DNA of 64,000 bases, from the NCBI GenBank assembly GCA_039090665.1, contig JAWCSL010000001.1, forward strand, positions 23,308 through 87,307, in the 5' to 3' direction. Origin of the DNA: Candidatus Aenigmatarchaeota archaeon (lineage in GTDB: Archaea; Aenigmatarchaeota; Aenigmatarchaeia; CG10238-14; SCSR01). The notes under the pieces are model-generated. The model was given only the letters and a program-made list of their open reading frames with translations, searched no databases and was not told where the DNA came from. Made by a program: the position numbers and the translations under genes. This document shows positions 12,438 through 64,000 of this stretch, piece by piece (the stretch's first letter is position 1; each line of letters opens with the position of its first letter).

Positions 12438-12544
12438 GCTGGCGTGGATTAGCCTGGCTAAATCGCGGCGCTCATAGCATCTATGAGCTTTGATAAAGGA
12501 TGAAAGAAACGCCGAGATCGCGGGTTCAAATCCCGCCGCCAGCA
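12438..12544 (+). tRNA. tRNA-Met (anticodon CAT; could also be tRNA-Ile2) with a ~32-nt intron at the canonical 37/38 site
   Basis: The cloverleaf was folded by hand. The acceptor stem is GCTGGCG/CGCCAGC, and the D-arm is GATT…AATC. The anticodon stem-loop is CGGCG-CTCATA[intron GCATCTATGAGCTTTGATAAAGGATGAAAGAA]A-CGCCG. The T-arm is GCGGG-TTCAAAT-CCCGC, the discriminator is A, and no CCA is encoded. Confidence 0.75.
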
Positions 12545-15398: not shown

Positions 15399-15562
15399 CT
15401 GAGTTATATTATTTATTTGCTCATGGGTCTTGGCGTTGGGCTTTTGATCAAGTCAAACAAGACATGAGATGAAATAGCCTATTCTGACTCATGAGATATT
15501 GGCCTGAAGTGAAAGAGCTTCAGGTAGGTTGATTGGTGAAACCTAGAGGTAGGGCCCGCCAA

Positions 15563-17298
15563 TTCTGGTTGATCCCGCCAGAGGCCACTGCTATCCGGCT
15601 TCGACTAAGCCATGCGAGTCGAGAGGGGAAAGCCCTCGGCGCACTGCTCCGTAATACACAGTCAACCTACCCTTAGCTGGGGGATAATCCCGGGAAACTG
15701 GGGCTAATACCCCATAGGTGCTAGGTACTGGAAGGTCCTAGCGCCGAAAGCTCCGGCGGCTAAGGATGGGACTGTGGCCTATCAGCTTGTTGTGGAGGTA
15801 AAGGCTCCACAAGGCGATAACGGGTACGGGCTATGGAAGTAGGAGCCCGGAGATGGACTCTGAGACATGAGTCCAGGTACTACGGTACGCAGCAGGCGCG
15901 AAAACTTCTCAATGCTCGCAAGAGCGAAGAGGGAAGCCGGAGTGCCCTTGCTCTGCAAGGGCTTTTGCGGTCTGAAAACGGGACCGCGAATAAGGGGTGG
16001 GTAAGACGGGTGCCAGCCGCCGCGGTAATACCCGCGCCCCGAGTGGTGGCCACGATTATTGGGCCTAAAGCGTCCGTAGCCGGTCTGGTAAGTCCTCAGT
16101 GAAATCCTCTAGCAAACTAGAGGGCTTGCTGGGGATACTGCCAGACTTGAGACTGGGAGGGGGCAGGGGTACTCCCAGGGTAGGGGTGAAATCCTGTAAT
16201 CCTGGGGGGACCACCTGTGGCGAAGGCGCCTGCCTGGAACAGGTCTGACGGTGAGGGACGAAAGCTAGGGGAGCGATCGGGATTAGATACCCCGGTACAC
16301 GAGGTTGGGTATCTTCTGATTTAAAGATGAAGAAAAATCCCAACTCAAGCTAGGATTTCCTAACTCGTGCGGGAAAGTCCTAGCCGTAAACGATGCCCGC
16401 TTGGTGTTGCAAGCTTCTCGGGAGCTTGCAGTGCCGAAGCGTAGGTGTTAAGCGGGCCGCCTGGGGAGTACGCCCGCAAGGGTGAAACTTAAGGGAATTG
16501 GCGGGGGAGCACACAAGGGGTGGGCGTTGCGGTTCAATTGGATTCAACGCCGGAAATCTTACCAGGGCCGACGGCAGGATGAAGGTCAGTCTGAAGGGCT
16601 TACCAGACGAGCCGAGAGGTGGTGCATGGCCATCGTCAGCTCGTACCGTGAGGCGTGCGCTTAAGTGCGTTAACGAGCGAGACCCACACCCCATGTTGCT
16701 AACTGCTTCTCCGGAAGCAGTGCACTCATGGGGGACCGCTGGCGATAAGCCAGAGGAAGGAGTGGGCGACGGTAGACAGGTAAAAGGCTCAAGACCGATT
16801 CATGTGAAAAAAAGATGAGCATGAATATCGCCCAGAGCCGTACATGTCTTTTACCTGACCGAAGTCCGTATGCCCCGAATGCCCTGGGCCACACGCGACG
16901 CACAATGCGCGCCACAATGGGATGCGACCCCGAAAGGGGAAGCAAAGCCCCTAAAAGCGCGCTCAGTTCGGATCGAGGGCTGTAACTCGTCCTCGTGAAG
17001 CTGGAATCCCTAGTAAGCGAACGTCATCATCGTTCGCTGAATACGTCCCTGCTCCTTGCACACACTGCCCGTCAAGCCAATCGAGCGGAACTCCATCGAG
17101 GCTTGCGATGAGCAAGTCGAGTTGGAGTTCTGTGAGAGGGGCTAATCTTGGGGGTCCAGAAAAAAATAATATGAAAGAATTGGCTTGACTCTGATGTGAT
17201 GATGAGATGGAGGTGAGTTGATTGCTTGTATGGACCTCCCAAGAGCCTAAAGTCGCCACAAGGTAGCCGTACGGGAACGTGCGGCTGGATCACCTCCT
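15563..17298 (+). rRNA. rrs: 16S rRNA (~1736 nt, unusually long; three ~70-90-nt insertions)
   Basis: The 5' end is ATTCTGGTTGATCCCGCCAGAGG and the 3' end is GCGGCTGGATCACCTCCT. The GC-rich block stands out in an AT-rich genome. Insertions relative to the archaeal consensus lie at about 16298-16376, 16776-16863 and 17159-17230. Confidence 0.9.
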
Positions 17299-17525
17299 TA
17301 CGTGCAACCCTACCTCAGGCACCATAAACAACCCTACCTGAAAGAATTTTCCTTTTTATCAGTACCAAAGTAAAAAAAATTAAGCTCGAATCTTTACCAT
17401 TATCCTCAAATTTTTCAATTCTTTTCTTAAACTGTTTTCAAAAAGCTTGTGTTAACTAAAAACTAAAATAAATGAGAGAAAAATAGCTACCGAGCTTATA
17501 AAATAATAAAAATTGGGAAACCATT

Positions 17526-19544
17526 TCAAGCAAGAATAGCATATCTAGCGATCAAAGAAGCAAAGACAGAAGCTGTTAAAGACATGACTGTTATCATTGT
17601 GTTCAAACTTGGTCCTGCTGTGTCCTTGAAAGGATCACCAACAGTATCACCAACAACAGCAGCCTTATGAGCTTCTGAACCTTTTCCACCAAAAGCCCCT
17701 TCTTCTATCAGCTTCTTAGCATTGTCCCAAGCTCCACCAGAATTTGCCATGAAAAGAGCAAAAATTATTCCTGTGATTATACTTCCTGCTAAAAAGCCCG
17801 CTAAAGCCTCTTTTCCCAAAATGAAGCCAACAAGCAAAGGTGCAGCTATAGCAAGCAAACAAGGAAGCATAAGCTCTCTTAAAGCACCTTTAGTTGCTAT
17901 GTCCACGCATTTGGCATAATCAGGTTTAGCTTTTCCTTTCATCAATCCAGGAATTTCTTTAAATTGCCTTCTCACTTCTTCTATCATACGAAAAGCATTT
18001 CTCCCTACTGCCAAAATCAATAAAGCCGAAATCACAGGAGGCATCATGCTACCAATAAAAGTCCCAACTATAACCTTAGGCTCCATCAAGTTTATTGAAA
18101 ACAAACCAGTAGTCAAATCTTTCCTTATTTCAACAACTTCAGCGTAAGCCCCAAGCAAAGCCAAAACTGTTAAAGCTGCAGCACCAATCGCGAAACCTTT
18201 TGTTATTGCTTTTGTTGTATTTCCCAAAGCATCAAGTCTGTCTGTAATTTCCAAGACTTTGCCTTTCAAACCAGCTTGTTCCGCTATTCCTTTTGCATTA
18301 TCGACAATTGGACCATAAGCATCAGAAGAAATTATCATTCCAACTATTGCTAACATACCCACTGCTGCTATAGCCACACCATAAAGATTACTTACACCGA
18401 AAGCCCCTGCAAGATGCCAAGCTGCAAGCATTGCTACACAAATTCCGATGATTGAAGGTACAATGCTCAAGATTCCATAAGAAAAGCCTGAGAGGATGTT
18501 GATAGCAGCTCCTGTTTTTGCAGCTTCTGCTGTTTTTTTCACAGGAGCTTTATCGATTGATGTATAGTAGTTTGTTGTTATTCCTATAATCATGCCAGAT
18601 ATAAGTCCAGCTAAAGTTGGTAAGAGAACACCAAAAGTTTGGTTTCCAAGTTCAAGAGCTTGAATCACAAAAAATGTTAAAATTGCAAAAATAAAACAAG
18701 TGGAAAAGGTTCCAACATTCAACGCAAGATTAGGGTTCTTTTTCTTGGCCAAATTGACGAAAATTAAACCAAGAAGAGAGGAAAAAATCCCAGCAGCTGC
18801 TATCAACAAAGGCAAGAAGATAAAGCTTGGAGCAATTGCTTTCCCAATTATCATGGCAGCTATGATGCTTGCTATGTAAGAATCTATCAAGTCAGCACCC
18901 ATTCCTGCAACATCACCCACATTATCACCCACATTATCAGCAATAACAGCAGGATTTCTTGGGTCATCTTCAGGAATTTCCATTTCCACTTTTCCCACCA
19001 AATCAGCTCCAATATCTGCTGTTTTAGTGTAAATGCCACCACCAGCTTTTGCAAACAAAGCCAAAGCACTTGCACCAAAGCTGAAACCCAAAACAATCTC
19101 AGGATCTTGGTAAATTTGGTATAAAATGCTTATGCCAAGCAAAGCTATGCCAACTATCATTAAACCCATGATGGCCCCACCATAAAAACCAACAGAAAAA
19201 GCTTTTGCTAATCCTTTTCTTGCTGCATTTGTAACCCTAACATTTGTTTTAACTGCTGCCAGCATTCCAAAGTAGCTTGCTATAGCAGTGGAAAAAGAGC
19301 CAAGCAAGTAGGCTAGAGCTATGTCTGGGCTTAAGAAGAGAAAAATAAGAGTTGTCATGATGACAACGAAAATTGCCAAATAAAGATTTTGCCTCTTCAA
19401 GTAAGCTTTTGCTCCCACTTTTATCGCTTCAGAAATTTCTTCCATTTTTTTGGTTCCCGGGCTTTGTTTGCTCACATGGAAATACAAGTAACAAGCTGTG
19501 AAGATCGAAGCTAAGCCTGCGATTGTTGGGATTGAAGCAAACAT
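17526..19544 (-). CDS. hppA: Membrane-bound H+/Na+-translocating pyrophosphatase
   Basis: [36 protein letters not shown] and GGAWDNAKK are H+-PPase signatures, with about 15 TM helices. It lies on the opposite strand between 16S and 23S. Confidence 0.9.
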
Positions 19545-19601
19545 GAAATCACGATATATAAAAATTTTGTTCGATGATAACTTAAATTTTAAACCATAAG
19601 A

Positions 19602-19886
19602 TTAAGTTAAGTAGTGCCTACATATTTCTAAAACTTTCCTACATTTTTCACACAAAAAATTCTCTATCCTTAAGTTAGAAGGATTGATTGACCAAAGATA
19701 TTCGACCAACTCTTCGACCTTACTATAAGGATACATTAAACACTTGTATTTGTAATCTGGCTCATAATGATGAGTCAATCCGAATTTATTTTCAGCTATT
19801 TCATGTAAAAACCCGCAACTCAAAAATCTCTTCTTGATTTCTAAATATTGATTTGAAATAAAGAAAGTAGATAAATAAATTGACAA
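19602..19886 (-). CDS. Hypothetical small Cys/His-rich protein (94 aa)
   Basis: An ORF with CxxC (CEKCRK) and HEIAEN…HH. No family is recognised. Confidence 0.3.
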   Translation of the reverse strand: MSIYLSTFFISNQYLEIKKRFLSCGFLHEIAENKFGLTHHYEPDYKYKCLMYPYSKVEELVEYLWSINPSNLRIENFLCEKCRKVLEICRHYLT

Positions 19887-20040
19887 ATAACTTTCTTTAT
19901 CGATTTCTAATATGTTAGAAGCTGCCCAGCTCTTAAGGCCTCTCTCAAGAAAGTGATACGGAACTTCAGATCCTTCTGTGTAAAAGAATGGGCCGTAAAG
20001 TAATAATTTTCATTCCACACTATTAAGTTATTCTTTTTAT

Positions 20041-20286
20041 TTATGAAAGGTAAAACCAAGTCGAAAATCTCATTAAATTACAGGAGTGTTGATCTTCATA
20101 AGTTTCTTTTGCCAATTTCAGTATTTTTTCTTTTGAATCTAATCCATATTTTCTAAGGATTTTCCAATTTTCTTCAGTTAGATTTCCAATTGAACTTTCT
20201 GTAAGCTGAAGAAAAATTTTCTTTCCTTCTTCAGTTTCTTTGCAATTATCGGAAATTCTAATTTCCAATTGGAAAATTATTTTCAA
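20041..20286 (-). CDS. Hypothetical 81-aa protein
   Basis: An ORF only. Confidence 0.25.
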   Translation of the reverse strand: MKIIFQLEIRISDNCKETEEGKKIFLQLTESSIGNLTEENWKILRKYGLDSKEKILKLAKETYEDQHSCNLMRFSTWFYLS

Positions 20287-20479
20287 GAAGAGTTTTCTTC
20301 AAAATATCTTCTAGTTCTCCATTTCTTTTTTCCACTAATATATCAAACCTTCTCATATTTTATCTGTAATATTTCTTCTGTCAAATCATTTTTTTCAAAA
20401 AATCTATTTAGAGTAAGAAATTTTAAAAAATATAAAGAATTTAGTTTAAGTTCACAATTATTTAATACCAGCTCAAAAC

Positions 20480-20551
20480 GGGCCGGTAGATCAATGGTAG
20501 ATCGCCTCGCTTGCAACGAGGAGGCTCCGGGTTCAAATCCCGGCCGGTCCA
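20480..20551 (+). tRNA. tRNA-Ala (TGC) with G3:U70
   Basis: The acceptor stem is GGGCCGG/CCGGTCC with a G3-U70 wobble, the Ala identity element. The anticodon loop is CTTGCAA. The T-arm is CCGGG-TTCAAAT-CCCGG and the discriminator is A. It sits about 300 nt upstream of the 23S processing stem. Confidence 0.85.
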
Positions 20552-20865
20552 TCAATGAAATTTTATTAAATTTAAATTCGAAATCTTTATAAATACAAAA
20601 TACAACTTATTTATTTGCCGGTGTCAGTATGTCTGCTTAATTCGAGCATCGGCTTTCTTTATTTTAGCGATGAGCTTTGTCTTTCTCTGCTGACAAAAAA
20701 GATGAAGATGTGGACACCTTGTGAGCAAGCTGCATGCAACTCCTTATTGAAAGAATAAGGGGTGAAGAGTGGAGGTTGATGATAACATTTATTCGCCTGA
20801 AAAAAGATGAAGAGCGAACTGTCTATTTGAAACCATAAGATGACACTACCACAGGATCAAGGAGG

Positions 20866-24222
<3,357 letters not shown>

Positions 24223-46765: not shown

Positions 46766-47560
46766 ATGCCGAGGGCAATCTTCACGGGAGCAATTTCTTT
46801 CGGCCTCGTTCATATTCCGATCAGAATTTACACTGCTACTGAATCAAAAGAAATAGAGTTTCACAATTTGTGTCCTGAATGTCTTTCGCCTTTGGAATAC
46901 AAGAGATGGTGTCCAAAATGTCAGAAAGAAGTTGCTTGGCAAGATGTAAAGAAAGGGTTCAAGATTTCAAAAGAAAGATGGGTTGTTCTTGATAAAGAAG
47001 AAATAGAAAAGCTCAAGCTACCAAGCACGAAAGCCTTAGAAATTCAAAGCTTTATTGATGTTTCTCAAATAGACCCAATTTTCTTCCAGAAAGCTTACTA
47101 TGTTGTTCCTGAGGAGGGAGGAGAAAAACCTTATTCTCTGCTTGTAGAAGCTCTAAGGCTTGCGAACAAAGCAGCAATTGGCAAAGTGGTTTTGAAGAAT
47201 AAGGAATACTTAGTTTGCTTGAGGCCTTTTAAGAAAGGGTTGGTCATGCACTTGCTTTACTTCTTGCGTGAAATTAAAGATATAGAAGAGTTGCCCGAAC
47301 TTAAGAATTTGGTCGTTGTTAGCAAAGAAGAGCTCGAGTTGGCAAAAGCTTTGATAAGCAAGCTTACAGAAGAAGAGTTTGATGCCAGCAAGTTTAAAGA
47401 TGAGTATACTGAAAAACTGAAAGAACTGATAAAAGCTAAGGCTGAAGGTAAGGAAGTTGAAATCAAAGCTGAAGAGAGAGTAGCGGAAGCTAAAAGTCTT
47501 ATGGAAGCCTTGAAAGCAAGCGTTGAACAAGCGAAGAAGAAAAAAGTTGAAGAGAAATAA
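46766..47560 (+). CDS. ku: Ku DNA end-binding protein with an inserted zinc-ribbon
   Basis: IFTGAISFGLVHIPIRIY is the Ku core N-terminal β-strand motif. A CPECLS…CPKCQ insertion follows. The C-terminus is K/E-rich. Confidence 0.8.
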   Translation: MPRAIFTGAISFGLVHIPIRIYTATESKEIEFHNLCPECLSPLEYKRWCPKCQKEVAWQDVKKGFKISKERWVVLDKEEIEKLKLPSTKALEIQSFIDVSQIDPIFFQKAYYVVPEEGGEKPYSLLVEALRLANKAAIGKVVLKNKEYLVCLRPFKKGLVMHLLYFLREIKDIEELPELKNLVVVSKEELELAKALISKLTEEEFDASKFKDEYTEKLKELIKAKAEGKEVEIKAEERVAEAKSLMEALKASVEQAKKKKVEEK

Positions 47561-47562
47561 TT

Positions 47563-48534
47563 ATGAGCCTTTGGAATAAAACGATAAAACCAATGCTTGC
47601 TGAAATTGCTAAGCCTTTTAGTGATGAGAAATTCTGCTTTGAGATAAAGTTTGATGGTACTAGAACAATAGCTTACATAGACAAGCAGAAAAAAGAAGTA
47701 AGGTTTTTAAATAGGCGTGGCATATGGTTTCAAGACCGCTACCCCGAGATGAAAGAGCTTTGGAAAGATGTGGAAGCAGAGCAAGTAATTCTTGATGGTG
47801 AGCTTGTTGTTTTTAATCAAGGAAAGCCTGATTTTTACCTTTTGGCTGAAAGGGAGCATGTTGGAAGCAAAGCTAGAGCTGAAATTTTATCAAGGCTTAA
47901 TCCTGCCACGCTTGTTGTTTTTGATGTTTTGCATTTGGATGGAAAAGATTTAGTTGATCTTCCTTTGATTGAAAGAAAGAAGATTTTGGAGAAAATTGTG
48001 AAAGAGAGTGAAAGAGTTTTGATTTCAGCTTATGTTATTGGTGAAGGTGAAAAATTTTTTGAAGAAGTTAAGGCTAAAGGTTTTGAGGGTGTGATGGCAA
48101 AGAGGCTTGATTCAAAGTATGAAATTGGAAGAAGAAGCAAGAATTGGCTGAAGATCAAAGCTTTAAACAGCTTGGATGCAATAATTTGTGGTTATACTTT
48201 AGGTGAAGGTAAGCGCGAGAAATACTTTGGGGCTTTGTTGCTCGGAGCGATACATGAAGGCAAGCTTAGGTACATTGGACGCGTGGGCACAGGCTGGCAG
48301 GAAAAAGATTTGGAAGAGCTAACTCAAAAACTTAAAAAAATTGAAATTGAGAAAAATCCTTTTGATGTTTTTGAAGAAGAGCCTTCTATTCTTGAAAAAG
48401 TTAAGTGGGTAAAACCAAAGCTTGTTTGTGAAGTTCAGTTTTTAGAGCTAACAGAAGATTTGAAGCTGAGAGCACCAAGCTTCAAGAGGTTGAGGGAAGA
48501 TAAAGCTGCAGAAGAATGTAGCTTAGAAGTTTAA
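47563..48534 (+). CDS. ATP-dependent DNA ligase (LigD ligase-domain-like, 323 aa)
   Basis: Motif I is EIKFDGTR (KxDG), motif IV is EGVMAK and motif V is NWLKIK, with an OB domain following. It starts 2 nt after the ku stop. Confidence 0.85.
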   Translation: MSLWNKTIKPMLAEIAKPFSDEKFCFEIKFDGTRTIAYIDKQKKEVRFLNRRGIWFQDRYPEMKELWKDVEAEQVILDGELVVFNQGKPDFYLLAEREHVGSKARAEILSRLNPATLVVFDVLHLDGKDLVDLPLIERKKILEKIVKESERVLISAYVIGEGEKFFEEVKAKGFEGVMAKRLDSKYEIGRRSKNWLKIKALNSLDAIICGYTLGEGKREKYFGALLLGAIHEGKLRYIGRVGTGWQEKDLEELTQKLKKIEIEKNPFDVFEEEPSILEKVKWVKPKLVCEVQFLELTEDLKLRAPSFKRLREDKAAEECSLEV

Positions 48535-60090: not shown

Positions 60091-61098
60091 CTACCACCAA
60101 ATTACAAATGGTTCATATTTTTTAACTCCAAGCAAATGTTTTATGAGCTTATAACACTCTAGTCTAATTAATCTTTGAAAAGATACACTTCTTCCCAAAT
60201 CTCTGTGTTTTATAGTAGTTTTAAGTTTTTCGTCATAGTGCTGTAAAAAAATCTTCTTTCCATTATTGTTAAGAAGAGTGTAGTTCAATTCCTTCATAAA
60301 ATGTTTTTCTTCAATTATTCGTTTGTTAATTAGCTTGAAGATAACCCTATCCGCTAATAAAGGTTTGAAAATTTCACTTAAATCTAAAGCTAAAGAAAAT
60401 CTCCTTTCGAATGGTTCATGTAAATAACTTATGGTTGGATTTAATTGTGTGTTGTAAATTTCTGTTAATATTGTGGAGTAAACCAAAGAATTGCCAAAGC
60501 TAATTAAGCAATTTATCATATTTTCCGGTGGCCTTTTTGTTCTTTTATCAAAATGGAACTTTTCAGGAAAAATTTTGTTAAAGCTTTGGTAATATGTATC
60601 CCAAATATTTCCTTCTATTGCCATAATTGCTGGAATATCATTCTGTTTTTCCAGTTCATTTAAAAGAAATTTAATTTTTTCTATTTCATCTTGCAATTCT
60701 CCTTTTGTTCTTTCATAATATTGTAAATTTTTCACAATATTCTGCCCGCAACCCTCAACAAATTTCTTTGCTAACTCTAACCTTTTCTCCTTGTTTAAAT
60801 AATACTCAACTTGTTTTACTAGTAAATATCCCGAAACCAAAGTTTCTCTTGGATATAAACTACCTTCATAAAAGCCATATTTATTAAAGAAATGAATCGG
60901 CACACCATACTTTGAAAGATAAGAAACTACGCCAGAAGAGAAAGTTACTCTTCCGTGAGCAAAAATTGCATAAATCTTGTTTATCGGCAAAATTTTCTTT
61001 TCTACCTCACCATTTTCATTCTTTTTAATAAAATAAACTGTGTTTTGTTTTCTTTTTAAAATTCCATTGCTAGTAATATAGTAATTTACCTTTCCCAT
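60091..61098 (-). CDS. cas1: CRISPR-associated integrase Cas1
   Basis: 335 aa. It has a Cas1-like layout with conserved E/H/E region candidates (…AIEGNIWDTYY…, …YLHEP…), and its stop abuts the cas2 start. Confidence 0.85.
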   Translation of the reverse strand: MGKVNYYITSNGILKRKQNTVYFIKKNENGEVEKKILPINKIYAIFAHGRVTFSSGVVSYLSKYGVPIHFFNKYGFYEGSLYPRETLVSGYLLVKQVEYYLNKEKRLELAKKFVEGCGQNIVKNLQYYERTKGELQDEIEKIKFLLNELEKQNDIPAIMAIEGNIWDTYYQSFNKIFPEKFHFDKRTKRPPENMINCLISFGNSLVYSTILTEIYNTQLNPTISYLHEPFERRFSLALDLSEIFKPLLADRVIFKLINKRIIEEKHFMKELNYTLLNNNGKKIFLQHYDEKLKTTIKHRDLGRSVSFQRLIRLECYKLIKHLLGVKKYEPFVIWW

Positions 61099-61121
61099 TT
61101 AATTGTTTATAAGTTTGTTAA

Positions 61122-61715
61122 CTATTTATTAATCCAGCATAATTCAAAGTAGCTACATTTTCTACAATACTTTTTCTTTTCTGGTTTTGGTGGTTTAGGT
61201 AAACAAACTATTCTTTTAATTTCTTGAAAAAGTTTTTGTAATTCATTTTCTTTCTCCGGAGTTAGCTTGACTTCAACAATTTTTCTTTTAGATGGATAAT
61301 TGATTATTCCTTCTGCGTTTTCGATCCCTTTCTCATGCTTAAGGTAGTAAAGATAATAAAGCATTTGATAATAGTGAGCCTCTTGAAATTTATCAGATTT
61401 TTTAATGTCATGAAGAATAAGTTTATCTCCCTTTTTGATAAAATCTATAGATATCTTCTGATCTATAAGTATGTCTTTCTCTATATCTTTAAATGCAATT
61501 TCATGTAATATTTTACCTAAAATTACAAGCTCAGATTCATGTTCCTGTGTAACATAATGAGAAAAATACCAAAGTTGTGTTTTACAATGAATGAAATAAC
61601 TCACCTGAACTCCTGTAAACAAAGCCTCTTCTTCAAATATTTTCTGAGAGTTTTGAGAAAAATTGTCTTGCTTCACTAAATCCATACACTTTTCTTGTTT
61701 TTTCTTTAAGCTCAT
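61122..61715 (-). CDS. cas4: CRISPR-associated exonuclease Cas4 (RecB-like nuclease with Fe-S Cys cluster)
   Basis: An N-terminal Cys (FIHCKTQLWY), a D…ILHDIKKSDK (D/ExK-like) motif, QEAHYYQMLYY (QxxxY) and the C-terminal CRKCSYFELC are present. The real start may be MDLVKQ at 61685. Confidence 0.8.
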   Translation of the reverse strand: MSLKKKQEKCMDLVKQDNFSQNSQKIFEEEALFTGVQVSYFIHCKTQLWYFSHYVTQEHESELVILGKILHEIAFKDIEKDILIDQKISIDFIKKGDKLILHDIKKSDKFQEAHYYQMLYYLYYLKHEKGIENAEGIINYPSKRKIVEVKLTPEKENELQKLFQEIKRIVCLPKPPKPEKKKYCRKCSYFELCWINK

Positions 61716-62643
61716 ATGATATTTTTAAATTTACAAGTTTATCTAGTAGTTCTCCGTTTACATATCCATTGAGAAAATAATATAAAAACTTATTCAAAAG
61801 AGAAGATGACAATTCCCTGTATTGTTTATCTTGAATATATGTAGAAAAAATGAATTTTACAATGAAAGGGTAATCTTCTCTTCCAGTTAAATAACCTCCA
61901 TACCATTTTGAAATAAAACTTTTCAATTTTGGAATAAAATACATTTCTTTTTTCTGTTTTGGAAGGTAACAAATTACTAATGTAACATCATCTCTTATGC
62001 CAATTTTTTCGAGTAAGGAGGGTATTCCCAGTTCTTCAACTTGTTTTTTCCAATTTTCTATTCCAAGAGATTCTTTTTTTATCCATGTAACAAATGATGA
62101 AATAAGAATGAAGGAATAAATAAATTCGTTAAGAAGAGGCAAAACCTTTATGCCAATATTGTTCATTATTTTTTTTAAATCAATACCCCCTTTTTCTTTA
62201 CCACTTGGAAAAATTAATAGTTCTTCATTAATTAGATATTCTCTAAATTTACTCCTTATTCTTTCATCCACATTATCTAAATTTACTATGTATTCACCGC
62301 TATAAATTCCAGAAATTATAAGATATAAAAATCTATAAATTTCGTCTTCACTCGGATTTTCTTTTCCAAGGTAGAAATTTGGTGCTTGGTCTGGAGATAT
62401 TATTGTTGGTATGAGCGACGCATCATATTTTTTATCTTCCTTTACACACTTTTCTATCAGTGATTTAAAAATATTTAGCATATTCTTTTCTAATTCACTC
62501 TCATGAACTTTCATTTTCCCTTTAATAATGTAATAACCTTTTCTTAATCTCTGTTGTAATAATCTTCTGACTATTGGTAGAGCATAACTTCTATTACTTT
62601 TTTCCTTTAAGAAATTTTCTAAAAGTTCTTTATAGTTTGTCAT
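61633..62643 (-). CDS. Uncharacterised 336-aa protein encoded between cas3 and cas4
   Basis: An ORF overlapping the cas3 stop by 4 nt (ATGA) and the cas4 5' end. It has no HD, RecA, RAMP or nuclease motif that I can recognise. Confidence 0.5.
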   Translation of the reverse strand: MTNYKELLENFLKEKSNRSYALPIVRRLLQQRLRKGYYIIKGKMKVHESELEKNMLNIFKSLIEKCVKEDKKYDASLIPTIISPDQAPNFYLGKENPSEDEIYRFLYLIISGIYSGEYIVNLDNVDERIRSKFREYLINEELLIFPSGKEKGGIDLKKIMNNIGIKVLPLLNEFIYSFILISSFVTWIKKESLGIENWKKQVEELGIPSLLEKIGIRDDVTLVICYLPKQKKEMYFIPKLKSFISKWYGGYLTGREDYPFIVKFIFSTYIQDKQYRELSSSLLNKFLYYFLNGYVNGELLDKLVNLKISYELKEKTRKVYGFSEARQFFSKLSENI

Positions 62644-64000
62644 ATTATTTCACTCCCTACTTCTCTAAAACCATAAAAACTATTGTAAATTTTGTCTTTT
62701 AAATCTACTATTGGAAGAGCTTTTCTTTCTTCGTCTCTTAAGTATTTGCGAACCCACCATATTGGAACCGGAACACTAACTTCTTTAAATTCTGCTAATA
62801 ATTTTCTTCTTTCATTAAAATTTTTATTTTTGAAGTCCTGACATAGAAGCTCTTCTATACATTTTTTAACTTCTTCGTCCTCTACACATTCAGGAGAAGG
62901 TATGATTAAAGTAGTGAAGCTATCCCTGTAACTTAATATTTTCGCCAATTCTTCTTCTGAAATATCAAGCGAAAAGAAAAATTGAAGGAGTTCTTCAAAT
63001 TGCTCCAAATTAACTTTTTTAGTCTCTCTTTGCAAAATTTCCAATAATTTATCATAAGTATATATTTCATCAAGATTTTTTAAAAGGTCAAACTCACTTT
63101 TTAAGTTATTACTTAATTCTTCAACTATTTTCTTAGCAATACATAATTCATCAGATGTATATGGATAGTATCGCTCATTCTCAATTTTTGGCTTAAAAAT
63201 TTTCACATTTACTTCTTCTGTTTTCACACCTCTTCTATTTACCCTTCCAAATCGTTGAATTAAAGAGGGAAGAGGGGCTAATTCTGTAAACATAAAATCA
63301 TAAGAAACATCTAATGAGACTTCGCATACTTGAGTTGTTATAAGTATGTGGGGTTTTTCTTTTAATTTTTCTATCTCATCCTCTTTTCTTTTTCTATCTT
63401 TATACATAAACCTTGCATGCAAAAGTAAAACATTTTCTTTTCCCACTTCTTTCACCAATTTTTCTGCAATTTCAATGGATTTTTCAACTGTATTTACAAC
63501 AACGATTACTTTCTTACCATCTTTAAAATTCTTAACTATATCATCAATATGGAGATCTAAGTCTTCGTCCAAATACTCGAACAATGCTCTCCTTTTTGCT
63601 TTATATCCATAGGAGAAATCTAGAAAAGAATTCTGAGTTAAATTTAGCTCACTTGCTAAGTATTTTTCTAAACCTTTCGAAAGAGTTGCAGACATAAATA
63701 GAACTTTGAAACTGTATATATTTTGAAATTTCTTAAGAAAGTACGTTAGAAGACTTAACATTAGTGGATTTAATAAATGTACTTCATCTAACACTATACC
63801 TGAATTTCTAAACATTACACGCTTTGTATAATATTTTCCAACCTGTAAAAATGATAGGAGAAATTGATCTACGGTAGTTATTACAAAGGGTTTTATGAAA
63901 TTTTCTATGAAAAACATGTTTTGTAAAAGATCTAAATCTTCTTTTACTTCAGTATCATAGAAATAGAAGTATTTTATCACATTCCTCCCAAAAACGTTTT
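62640..64000 (-). CDS. cas3: Cas3 helicase (partial; N-terminus beyond window edge)
   Basis: Motif Ia is TTVDQ, motif II is LDEVH (DExH), motif III is MSATL and motif VI is LIQRFGRVNRRG, followed by a C-terminal domain. The reading frame remains open to position 64000, and the track's 'M' at 63980 is a GTG. Confidence 0.8.
   Translation of the reverse strand, partial: NVFGRNVIKYFYFYDTEVKEDLDLLQNMFFIENFIKPFVITTVDQFLLSFLQVGKYYTKRVMFRNSGIVLDEVHLLNPLMLSLLTYFLKKFQNIYSFKVLFMSATLSKGLEKYLASELNLTQNSFLDFSYGYKAKRRALFEYLDEDLDLHIDDIVKNFKDGKKVIVVVNTVEKSIEIAEKLVKEVGKENVLLLHARFMYKDRKRKEDEIEKLKEKPHILITTQVCEVSLDVSYDFMFTELAPLPSLIQRFGRVNRRGVKTEEVNVKIFKPKIENERYYPYTSDELCIAKKIVEELSNNLKSEFDLLKNLDEIYTYDKLLEILQRETKKVNLEQFEELLQFFFSLDISEEELAKILSYRDSFTTLIIPSPECVEDEEVKKCIEELLCQDFKNKNFNERRKLLAEFKEVSVPVPIWWVRKYLRDEERKALPIVDLKDKIYNSFYGFREVGSEII

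Follow-up and report, generated by a model that had tools for sequence, protein, structure and literature searches.

Predicted bulge–helix–bulge mini-introns that interrupt the 16S rRNA gene of an Aenigmatarchaeota archaeon, one of them with a putative box C/D guide RNA

The 16S rRNA gene and its three insertions

The DNA analysed here (64,000 nucleotides (nt) of contig JAWCSL010000001.1 from a Candidatus Aenigmatarchaeota archaeon, referred to below as the window) carries on its plus strand, at 15562–17298, a 16S rRNA gene of 1737 nt, to be compared with the 1478 positions of the Rfam model for archaeal small-subunit rRNA (RF01959, SSU_rRNA_archaea; 1297 bits over model positions 1–1478). The exons fit the archaeal model throughout and cmscan placed the extra length in three insertions: 80 nt past GAUUAGAUA, about 85 nt past model position 1114, and a third inside helix 44 (h44), where 137 nt stand in place of the 34 in the model. 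These insertions, numbered introns 1–3 for reasons given below, and the small RNA apparently encoded in the third are the subject of this report. With the limits predicted from the splicing motifs (all on the plus strand; Escherichia coli positions from alignment to E. coli rrsH), intron 1 occupies 16297–16375 (79 nt) at E. coli 801/802, on the 3' strand of h24 directly past the 790 loop, intron 2 occupies 16776–16863 (88 nt) at 1197/1198, on the 3' strand of h34, and intron 3 occupies 17145–17250 (106 nt) between A1492 and A1493 at the base of h44, in the decoding site. The three add up to 273 nt and the gene spliced in silico is 1464 nt long. All three fold stably (z-scores of −2.6 to −4.5). 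The 785F/806R primer site is split by intron 1 and the 1492R site by intron 3.

A preliminary description of this DNA had put the 16S gene some 250 nt over the normal length, with three insertions flanked by inverted repeats. The insertions are real, although the exact excess is the 273 nt given above. Its first insertion (about 16298–16376) exists within slightly different limits, and its second (about 16776–16863) was placed exactly. The third, which it took for about 72 nt at the tip of h44, in fact belongs to the 3' strand of that helix, at its base, and is 106 nt long, with a complete h44 hairpin upstream. The interiors had correctly been called AT-rich, as GC content is 0.33–0.43 in all three against about 0.55–0.65 in the exons.

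The flanks were scanned for the 3-4-3 bulge–helix–bulge (BHB) motif recognised by the archaeal splicing endonuclease (two 3-nt bulges with a 4-bp helix between them). As one of the two options in the preliminary description would have it, a canonical motif frames each insertion, and in one shared layout: four exon nucleotides, a 3-nt bulge, the intron helix, four intron nucleotides complementary to those exon nucleotides, and a second 3-nt bulge. At intron 1 the 5' side (plus strand, as are all the motifs) is CCCG (16291–16294), bulge GUA (16295–16297) and CACGAG (16298–16303), and the 3' side CUCGUG (16364–16369; CTCGTG in the DNA), CGGG (16370–16373) and bulge AAA (16374–16376). At intron 2 the 5' side is CGGU (16770–16773), bulge AGA (16774–16776) and CAGGUAAAAG (16777–16786; CAGGTAAAAG in the DNA), then GC, and the 3' side is GU, then CUUUUACCUG (16848–16857; CTTTTACCTG in the DNA), ACCG (16858–16861) and bulge AAG (16862–16864). 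At intron 3 the 5' side is GGGC (17139–17142), bulge UAA (17143–17145) and UCUUGGGGGUCCA (17146–17158; TCTTGGGGGTCCA in the DNA), and the 3' side UGGACCUCCCAAGA (17231–17244; TGGACCTCCCAAGA in the DNA), GCCU (17245–17248) and bulge AAA (17249–17251). The inner, intron helix has 6 bp in intron 1, 10–12 bp in intron 2 and 13 bp in intron 3, and it is these intron-proximal helices that the preliminary description had recorded as inverted repeats, all three of which are present. In 2000 dinucleotide shuffles a 3-4-3 BHB lying no more than 8 nt to either side of both insert ends, and having 6 bp or more in its inner helix, arose 38, 15 and 73 times for sites 1, 2 and 3 respectively (0.0075–0.037 per site), which gives a joint chance of about 5e-6 for all three sites.

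Cutting in silico after the second nucleotide of each bulge gives the junctions GGU/AGUCC for intron 1, GGUAG/GUCCG for intron 2 and GGCUA/AGUCG for intron 3 (the slash marks the joint). These are also the empty sites of relatives: GGU/AGUCC for intron 1, GGUAG/GUCCGUAUG for intron 2 and, for intron 3, GGGGCUA/AGUCGCC in more than 35 relatives. No group I or group II ribozyme core was matched in the insertions by Rfam at either gathering or E-value thresholds, and self-splicing introns of these two groups were ruled out on this absent signal and on the size of 79–106 nt.

The relatives were collected in two scans, one of a one-genome-per-species set with the 3'-terminal signature AGTCGCCACAAGGTAGCCGTA (63 DPANN contigs) and one of metagenomes with the exon junction predicted for intron 3 (30 contigs), and the in-silico mature 16S was compared by BLAST with all contigs from both (cited below by L numbers). 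Three NCBI assemblies have the same 1737-nt gene and one contig from the Joint Genome Institute (JGI) has its 3' part, all on contigs that share the pyrophosphatase gene described below. One of these assemblies (L004) departs from the window sequence at four intron 2 positions, indicating that the assemblies are independent strains and not copies of one assembly. Homologous introns are present in five other sequence variants at site 1, in six at site 2 and in six at site 3; many Aenigmatarchaeota lack one, two or all three, with empty sites that are exactly the predicted ligated junctions, and several relatives at 81–85% identity are wholly intron-less. Contigs L075, L083, L095 and L100 belong to Aenigmatarchaeota that lack all of the introns. 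Presence and absence are independent from site to site: L038 has introns 1 and 3 and lacks 2, and L078 and L094 (94–97% identical to the window) have introns 1 and 2 and lack 3. Across the phylum BHB-framed insertions were found at at least 15 loci in 16S genes, nearly all of them in the same layout.

The helices of the introns covary. In intron 3 (17 pairs) 95% are paired across the variants with five compensatory pairs, and none of 500 shuffles reached the score; the same structure slid by one to three columns pairs at only 25–64%. The intron 2 helix is paired in 97.9% of cells (two compensatory pairs) and that of intron 1 in 100% (one compensatory pair), and over the three introns together the slid-structure controls pair at 13–64%.

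Some relatives carry further or longer introns. L001 has a 610-nt intron at E. coli 978/979 (L001:8140–8749, minus strand) with an open reading frame (ORF) of 178 amino acids (aa), and L049 an 826-nt form of intron 2 (L049:5966–6821, minus strand) with an ORF of 253 aa. A homing endonuclease was considered for these long versions and rejected: neither ORF contains LAGLIDADG, and the matches to DUF559 and helix–turn–helix (HTH) models were sub-threshold only. A 228-nt intron is present in L006 at mature position 931, and L037 has, some 12 nt upstream of intron 1, a second mini-intron.

A box C/D-like RNA in intron 3

Conservation within intron 3 is highest in its interior, which resembles a box C/D small RNA (sRNA), a likeness that the preliminary description had missed. 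This element extends over 17171–17221 on the plus strand (delimited by an Rfam E-value scan together with box order and conserved layout) and reads AUGAAAG - AAUUGGCUUGACU - CUGA - UGUG - AUGAUGA - GAUGGAGGUGAG - UUGA, that is, a C box (17171–17177), a D' guide of 13 nt (17178–17190), a D' box (17191–17194), a C' box (17199–17205), a D guide of 12 nt (17206–17217) and a D box (17218–17221). The D' and C' boxes are canonical (consensus RUGAUGA for C and CUGA for D). The C-D'-C'-D order with guide spacers of 12–14 nt recurs in every homologue, and the layout is kept in 25–29 variants. In the Rfam E-value scan of intron 3 the best match was sR18 (RF01141, a Pyrococcus C/D RNA; 24 bits, E = 7e-4, full model length), with weaker matches on 17167–17223 to sR20, sR33, snoPyro_CD, sR11 and sR2, three over the same span and two partial. 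The core thus resembles the C/D class and belongs to no curated Rfam family.

Position 6 of the C box is A in every reliably called variant and position 1 of the D box is always U, with the GA dinucleotides kept, so that in the predicted kink-turn (K-turn) an A-U pair replaces the usual G-C pair of stem II as a compensated change. The terminal stem beside the boxes has a median of 8 bp and is built from many different sequence versions.

Both guides have candidate targets in the 16S rRNA itself. Over 11 nt the D' guide is exactly antisense to GUCAAGCCAAU (17071–17081, plus strand; E. coli 1405–1415), a match with P of about 4e-4 for a random 12-mer, and its N+5 nucleotide is A1408 (window position 17074); C/D guides for this nucleotide have been predicted in S. 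acidocaldarius and N. equitans (PMC4644070). The eight core pairs of guide and target are 92–100% paired over 25 distinct variants, and at position 1410 the pair is GC in 19, AU in 4 and GU in 2 of these, with no mismatch. The D guide GGAGGUGA is complementary over 8 nt to the 3'-terminal UCACCUCC (17290–17297, plus strand; E. coli 1532–1539, in the anti-Shine-Dalgarno region), with N+5 at C1535; it is conserved in 24 of 28 tabulated variants, the other four having a substitution in the guide core.

The same guide cassette also occurs in a different BHB intron, at 1513/1514, in 22 other variants, including L078 and L094 which lack intron 3; the 1513/1514 site is 21 nt downstream of the intron 3 site of the window. 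The presence of the cassette at two loci (1492/1493 and 1513/1514) suggests that selection acts on the cassette itself and not on one intron. From the features so far described we consider intron 3 likely to hold a genuine box C/D RNA as its core, and the balance of the evidence somewhat favours methylation of A1408 by it.

The intron-3 cassette was also seen on a 3.1-kb contig labelled Candidatus Hadarchaeum (L053, NZ_JBMFOX010000069.1) whose 16S is up to 97% identical in parts; this contig is probably mis-binned Aenigmatarchaeota. Another, different C/D-like module is found in many other Aenigmatarchaeota (L014, L022, L028, L043, L052, L063 and others), where the h43 loop is interrupted by a BHB intron at mature 16S position 1301 (E. 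coli 1363/1364); the guide of this module (AUGCAC[CU]ACU-CUGA) is complementary to 16S GU[GA]GUGCAU in the 5' strand of h34. This guide appears to change with its target: that of L043 matches its own 16S exactly, while for L028 the target was inferred and not extracted.

Introns 1 and 2 hold less complete motifs. In intron 1 the core at 16307–16330 (plus strand; from sequence and minimum free energy (MFE) fold), kept in six homologues, begins with an 8-nt antisense GGGUAUCU (16307–16314) to the 790-loop exon AGAUACCC (16285–16292), followed by a D'-like CUGA (16316–16319) and a C'-like AAGAUGA (16324–16330) in a kink-loop (K-loop) closed by UCUUC/GAAGA. Intron 2 has an internal hairpin at 16799–16825 (plus strand; MFE fold), UUCAUG-UGAAAAAAAGAUGAG-CAUGAA, with tandem G.A/A.G pairs in a K-loop-like arrangement; in L094 and L080 UCUAUAG/CUAUAGA forms the stem, with the tandem GA retained. 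Full C/D RNAs are not supported for either intron, as the two have only D'/C'-type K-loops and no Rfam match, and no guide function is claimed for them.

Other introns and genes of the window

The 23S rRNA gene (20872–24215, plus strand; Rfam RF02540, 2578 bits; 3344 nt against a model of 2987 positions) is interrupted in the same manner by four canonical BHB mini-introns of 50, 86, 89 and 54 nt, exactly at the cmscan insert points and all on the plus strand. The first (22875–22924, 50 nt) has an inner helix of 11 bp. The second (23239–23324, 86 nt) holds a C/D-type RNA, AUGAGGA-GUCCCUUAAGUU-AUGA-...-AUGAUUA-AGGGCAUACGAA-CCGA, of which both guides are complementary to 16S, at 908–918 (11 nt) and 1201–1209 (9 nt); this intron is conserved in L002, where the D box is the canonical CUGA. 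The third (23380–23468, 89 nt), conserved in L002, L048 and L099, also holds a C/D-type RNA, AUGAUUG-12 nt-AUGA-5 nt-AUGAUUU-12 nt-AUGA, with a D guide complementary to 23S AGCUACCUC. The RNAs of 23S introns 2 and 3 have the C-12-D'-n-C'-12-D architecture seen in 16S intron 3. The fourth 23S intron (23613–23666, 54 nt) lies inside GGGGAUAA of the peptidyl-transferase region, and directly past it, between GGGGAUAA and 23S helix 89, there are about 80 more extra nucleotides (23667–23745) in which no canonical BHB frame was found.

A tRNA gene at 12438–12544 (107 nt, CAU anticodon), found by Rfam and missed by ARAGORN, has an intron of about 32 nt. This contains an antisense to the anticodon arm (12479–12489) followed by UUGA...AUGAAAG (12490–12506), for which N+5 would be C34; UUGA and AUGAAAG are the variant box pair of 16S intron 3. 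Inspection by eye of the tRNA intron and of the 16S processing stem resolved no exact BHB.

The 16S and 23S genes are separated by 3.5 kb (17299–20871) occupied by a gene for a 672-aa H+/Na+ pyrophosphatase on the opposite strand (17526–19544) and by tRNA-Ala (20480–20551). This membrane pyrophosphatase is 100% identical to an NCBI protein annotated as Candidatus Aenigmatarchaeota, and the arrangement of pyrophosphatase gene and tRNA-Ala between the two rRNA genes is kept in the closest relatives (L001, L003 and L004) and not in more distant Aenigmatarchaeota. Elsewhere in the window there is a Ku and ATP-dependent DNA ligase pair (46766–48534) and, at the right end within 60091–63980, genes for cas1, cas4 and a cas3-like helicase.

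Interpretation and comparison with known systems

The preliminary description had offered two options for the insertions, mini-introns excised at BHB motifs or retained expansion segments. The second would leave the insertions in the mature 16S, much like the expansion segments of Asgard and eukaryotic rRNA; unusual length is a known trait of DPANN and Asgard rRNAs, and the stable folds of all three insertions would suit retained segments. However, 801/802, 1197/1198 and A1492/A1493 belong to the invariant, universally conserved functional core and are not variable helix tips, each insertion has a precise BHB whose excision restores the consensus, and relatives at 94–97% identity cleanly lack single insertions in an all-or-none distribution with no graded length. 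By established ribosome structure the 790 loop adjoins 801/802, 1197/1198 is in the strand of h34 lining the A site, and A1492 and A1493 are the decoding adenines, between which an insertion would be expected to disrupt A-site geometry. As sites in the functional core could hardly tolerate extra RNA, retention is very unlikely, and that option is best set aside. We give next to no credence to an assembly artefact or chimera, or to a decaying pseudogene copy; the sequence does come from a metagenome-assembled genome, but the identical gene is found in three NCBI assemblies and a JGI contig, including a strain variant with four intron differences, homologous introns with compensatory changes occur in several other species, and the exons match the archaeal model throughout. 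Excision without re-ligation, leaving a fragmented 16S, would involve the same BHB cleavage; fragmented rRNAs exist in bacteria and some eukaryotes, and ligation is here a prediction from the sequence. This too is highly improbable, as RtcB joins the known archaeal BHB cleavage products of rRNA and tRNA (PMC4496867), the intervening sequences of bacteria are located at the tips of helices, and four 16S fragments split in h24, h34 and the decoding site would be without known precedent. The mini-intron option, on the other hand, is upheld by motif geometry, by the exactly restored junctions, by covariation and by presence and absence in close relatives, and the three insertions are very probably archaeal BHB-spliced introns in a single 16S gene.

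A narrower alternative accepts BHB splicing and takes the core of intron 3 for a platform for L7Ae binding or folding that helps to present the BHB or chaperones folding of the precursor rRNA, the complementarity to 1405–1415 serving for pairing only and not for guided methylation. Its boxes are non-consensus with Rfam scores below threshold, introns 1 and 2 have K-loop-like motifs only, and the D guide points to the anti-Shine-Dalgarno tail, where methylation has no known role, all of which would fit such a platform. Against it stand the full C-D'-C'-D order with 12–14-nt spacers, the compensated K-turn and the covarying terminal stem, together with a guide that covaries with its target and an N+5 position on A1408, a nucleotide that free-standing C/D sRNAs of two other archaea are, on independent grounds, predicted to target. 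We therefore regard a platform without guide function as unlikely, and as a whole the observations are, we believe with good confidence, best explained by BHB introns of which intron 3 carries a C/D guide. Motif geometry, exact junctions, covariation, box and guide architecture and guide–target covariation can all be read directly from the DNA.

Several observations nevertheless weigh against this interpretation. The outer exon–exon helix of the BHB is weak (2, 2 and 0 bp for introns 1, 2 and 3); some types of endonuclease tolerate outer helices relaxed in this way (PMC5829648). No gene for EndA, RtcB, fibrillarin, Nop5 or L7Ae was found in the 64-kb window or the fetched loci; the search comprised Pfam assignment of about 45 ORFs of the window and tblastn with sequences of fibrillarin, EndA and L7Ae against the fetched DNA, the latter a weak test. 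No spliced copy of this 16S was seen either: the 30 contigs from the metagenome scan with junction 3 were relatives at no more than 97% identity, and a search of protein collections with a stop-free frame across junction 2 gave 83% identity at best, although neither search is informative about splicing. As regards the guide RNA, the C (AUGAAAG) and D (UUGA) boxes depart from consensus, the 24 bits of sR18 are below its gathering threshold of 45 and all the C/D families are sub-threshold, and the C/D terminal stem has only about 3 bp in the copy of the window, where the inner helix of the BHB closes it. The targets are near-invariant and guide–target covariation rests on one position, the match of the D guide is just 8 nt and weakly significant alone (P of about 0.05), and introns 1 and 2 carry K-loop-like half motifs only.

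If the insertions are BHB introns and intron 3 bears a guide, maturation would proceed as follows. EndA would cut each bulge behind its second nucleotide and RtcB would join the exons, yielding a 16S of 1464 nt with normal GGUAGUCC, GACGGUAGGUCC and GGGGCUAAGUCG and releasing the introns, probably as circles. L7Ae, Nop5 and fibrillarin would assemble on intron 3; its D' guide would pair with 1405–1415, the strand that faces the insertion point in the mature ribosome, so that fibrillarin should 2'-O-methylate A1408, and its D guide with the 3'-terminal UCACCUCC. In the precursor the guide would hold 1405–1415 while the 3' end of intron 3 (GCCU) would hold 1487–1490 in the BHB. With both strands of the h44 base held by the intron, the decoding site could form only after guide release and splicing. 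This ordering, in effect a clamp or checkpoint of the sort seen with the C/D-bearing intron of pre-tRNA-Trp (PMC7994747), must be regarded as rather doubtful. Only tentatively, Aenigmatarchaeota rRNA introns may have been domesticated as cis-acting carriers of C/D guides, with methylation of A1408 and an intron-based maturation checkpoint. On that supposition an intron at either 1492/1493 or 1513/1514 would hold both strands of the decoding helix and the anti-Shine-Dalgarno tail, and the guide-bearing 23S introns, of which there are at least two (one with both guides against 16S and one with its D guide against 23S), would provide cross-talk between the subunits.

Archaeal rRNA introns are usually seen as selfish homing elements or their remnants. 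A guide that is conserved phylum-wide and covaries with its target, in a short ORF-less intron, speaks for the retention of such introns on account of a function, and it offers a testable prokaryotic analogue, in the ribosomal decoding centre, of intron-encoded small nucleolar RNAs (snoRNAs) and of the cis-acting tRNA-Trp intron. There is also a practical consequence, as with split primer sites and at least 15 intron loci among relatives, amplicon surveys and automated rRNA callers would under-count or mis-size the phylum.

BHB introns in 16S genes are a known kind, documented at 13 loci in the TACK lineages Thermoproteales, Desulfurococcales and Aigarchaeota (Jay and Inskeep, 2015, PMC4496867). 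Those of the window resemble them in their predicted BHB splicing, in sitting in the most conserved parts of 16S, in having a lower GC content than the exons and a sporadic distribution among relatives, in breaking 'universal' primer sites and in including short ORF-less forms. Locus 803 of that set (Desulfurococcales) is within 1–2 nt of intron 1, and its locus 978 is that of the extra intron of L001. The host here, in contrast, is a DPANN phylum; 1197/1198, 1492/1493, 1363/1364 and 1513/1514 are not among the 13 loci and so extend the catalogued Crenarchaeota set. Introns of 79–106 nt are outside the classes distinguished there (short hairpins of less than 50 nt and introns encoding homing endonucleases), being closest to the ORF-less remnant class, and unlike those classes they contain conserved K-turn or C/D modules. 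BHB introns beside group I introns have also been described for the rRNA genes of archaea of various phyla known from metagenomes (PMC6125680). The present lineage shares with the uncultured group I-bearing lineages a small genome and rRNA genes interrupted at conserved sites, but its introns have no ribozyme fold, are only 79–106 nt long and, in the copies of the window, have no ORF.

For the guide itself the nearest parallel is the intron of archaeal pre-tRNA-Trp, which carries a box C/D RNA (Clouet d'Orval et al., 2001; Singh et al., 2004; both as cited in PMC7994747). In both cases a BHB intron would contain a complete C/D guide RNA with two guides directed at the host RNA beside the insertion point, and guide duplex and splicing motif would compete for the same exon nucleotides; here, however, the host is an rRNA, the guides are predicted to target A1408 in the decoding centre and the 16S 3' tail, and the cassette occurs at two alternative loci. 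With free-standing archaeal C/D sRNAs (Pyrococcus sR RNAs and the predicted A1408 guides of PMC4644070) the intron 3 RNA shares a length of about 55 nt, the C-D'-C'-D order, 12-nt guides, the N+5 rule and the same predicted target nucleotide, but it lies in an rRNA intron and not between genes, and has variant C (AUGAnAn) and D (UUGA) boxes with a compensating A-U pair. Introns of tRNAs, and none of rRNAs, are listed in a 2021 review of the C/D sRNAs of archaea (PMC7994747), and in the open-access literature we found no paper joining box C/D sRNAs with rRNA introns, or on rRNA introns of Aenigmatarchaeota. As with eukaryotic intron-encoded snoRNAs, a guide for rRNA methylation would be released from an intron in a gene of the translation apparatus, but by endonuclease and ligase and not by the spliceosome, and the host gene is that of the target rRNA itself; should the introns prove to be domesticated guide carriers, they would be a prokaryotic counterpart of those snoRNAs.

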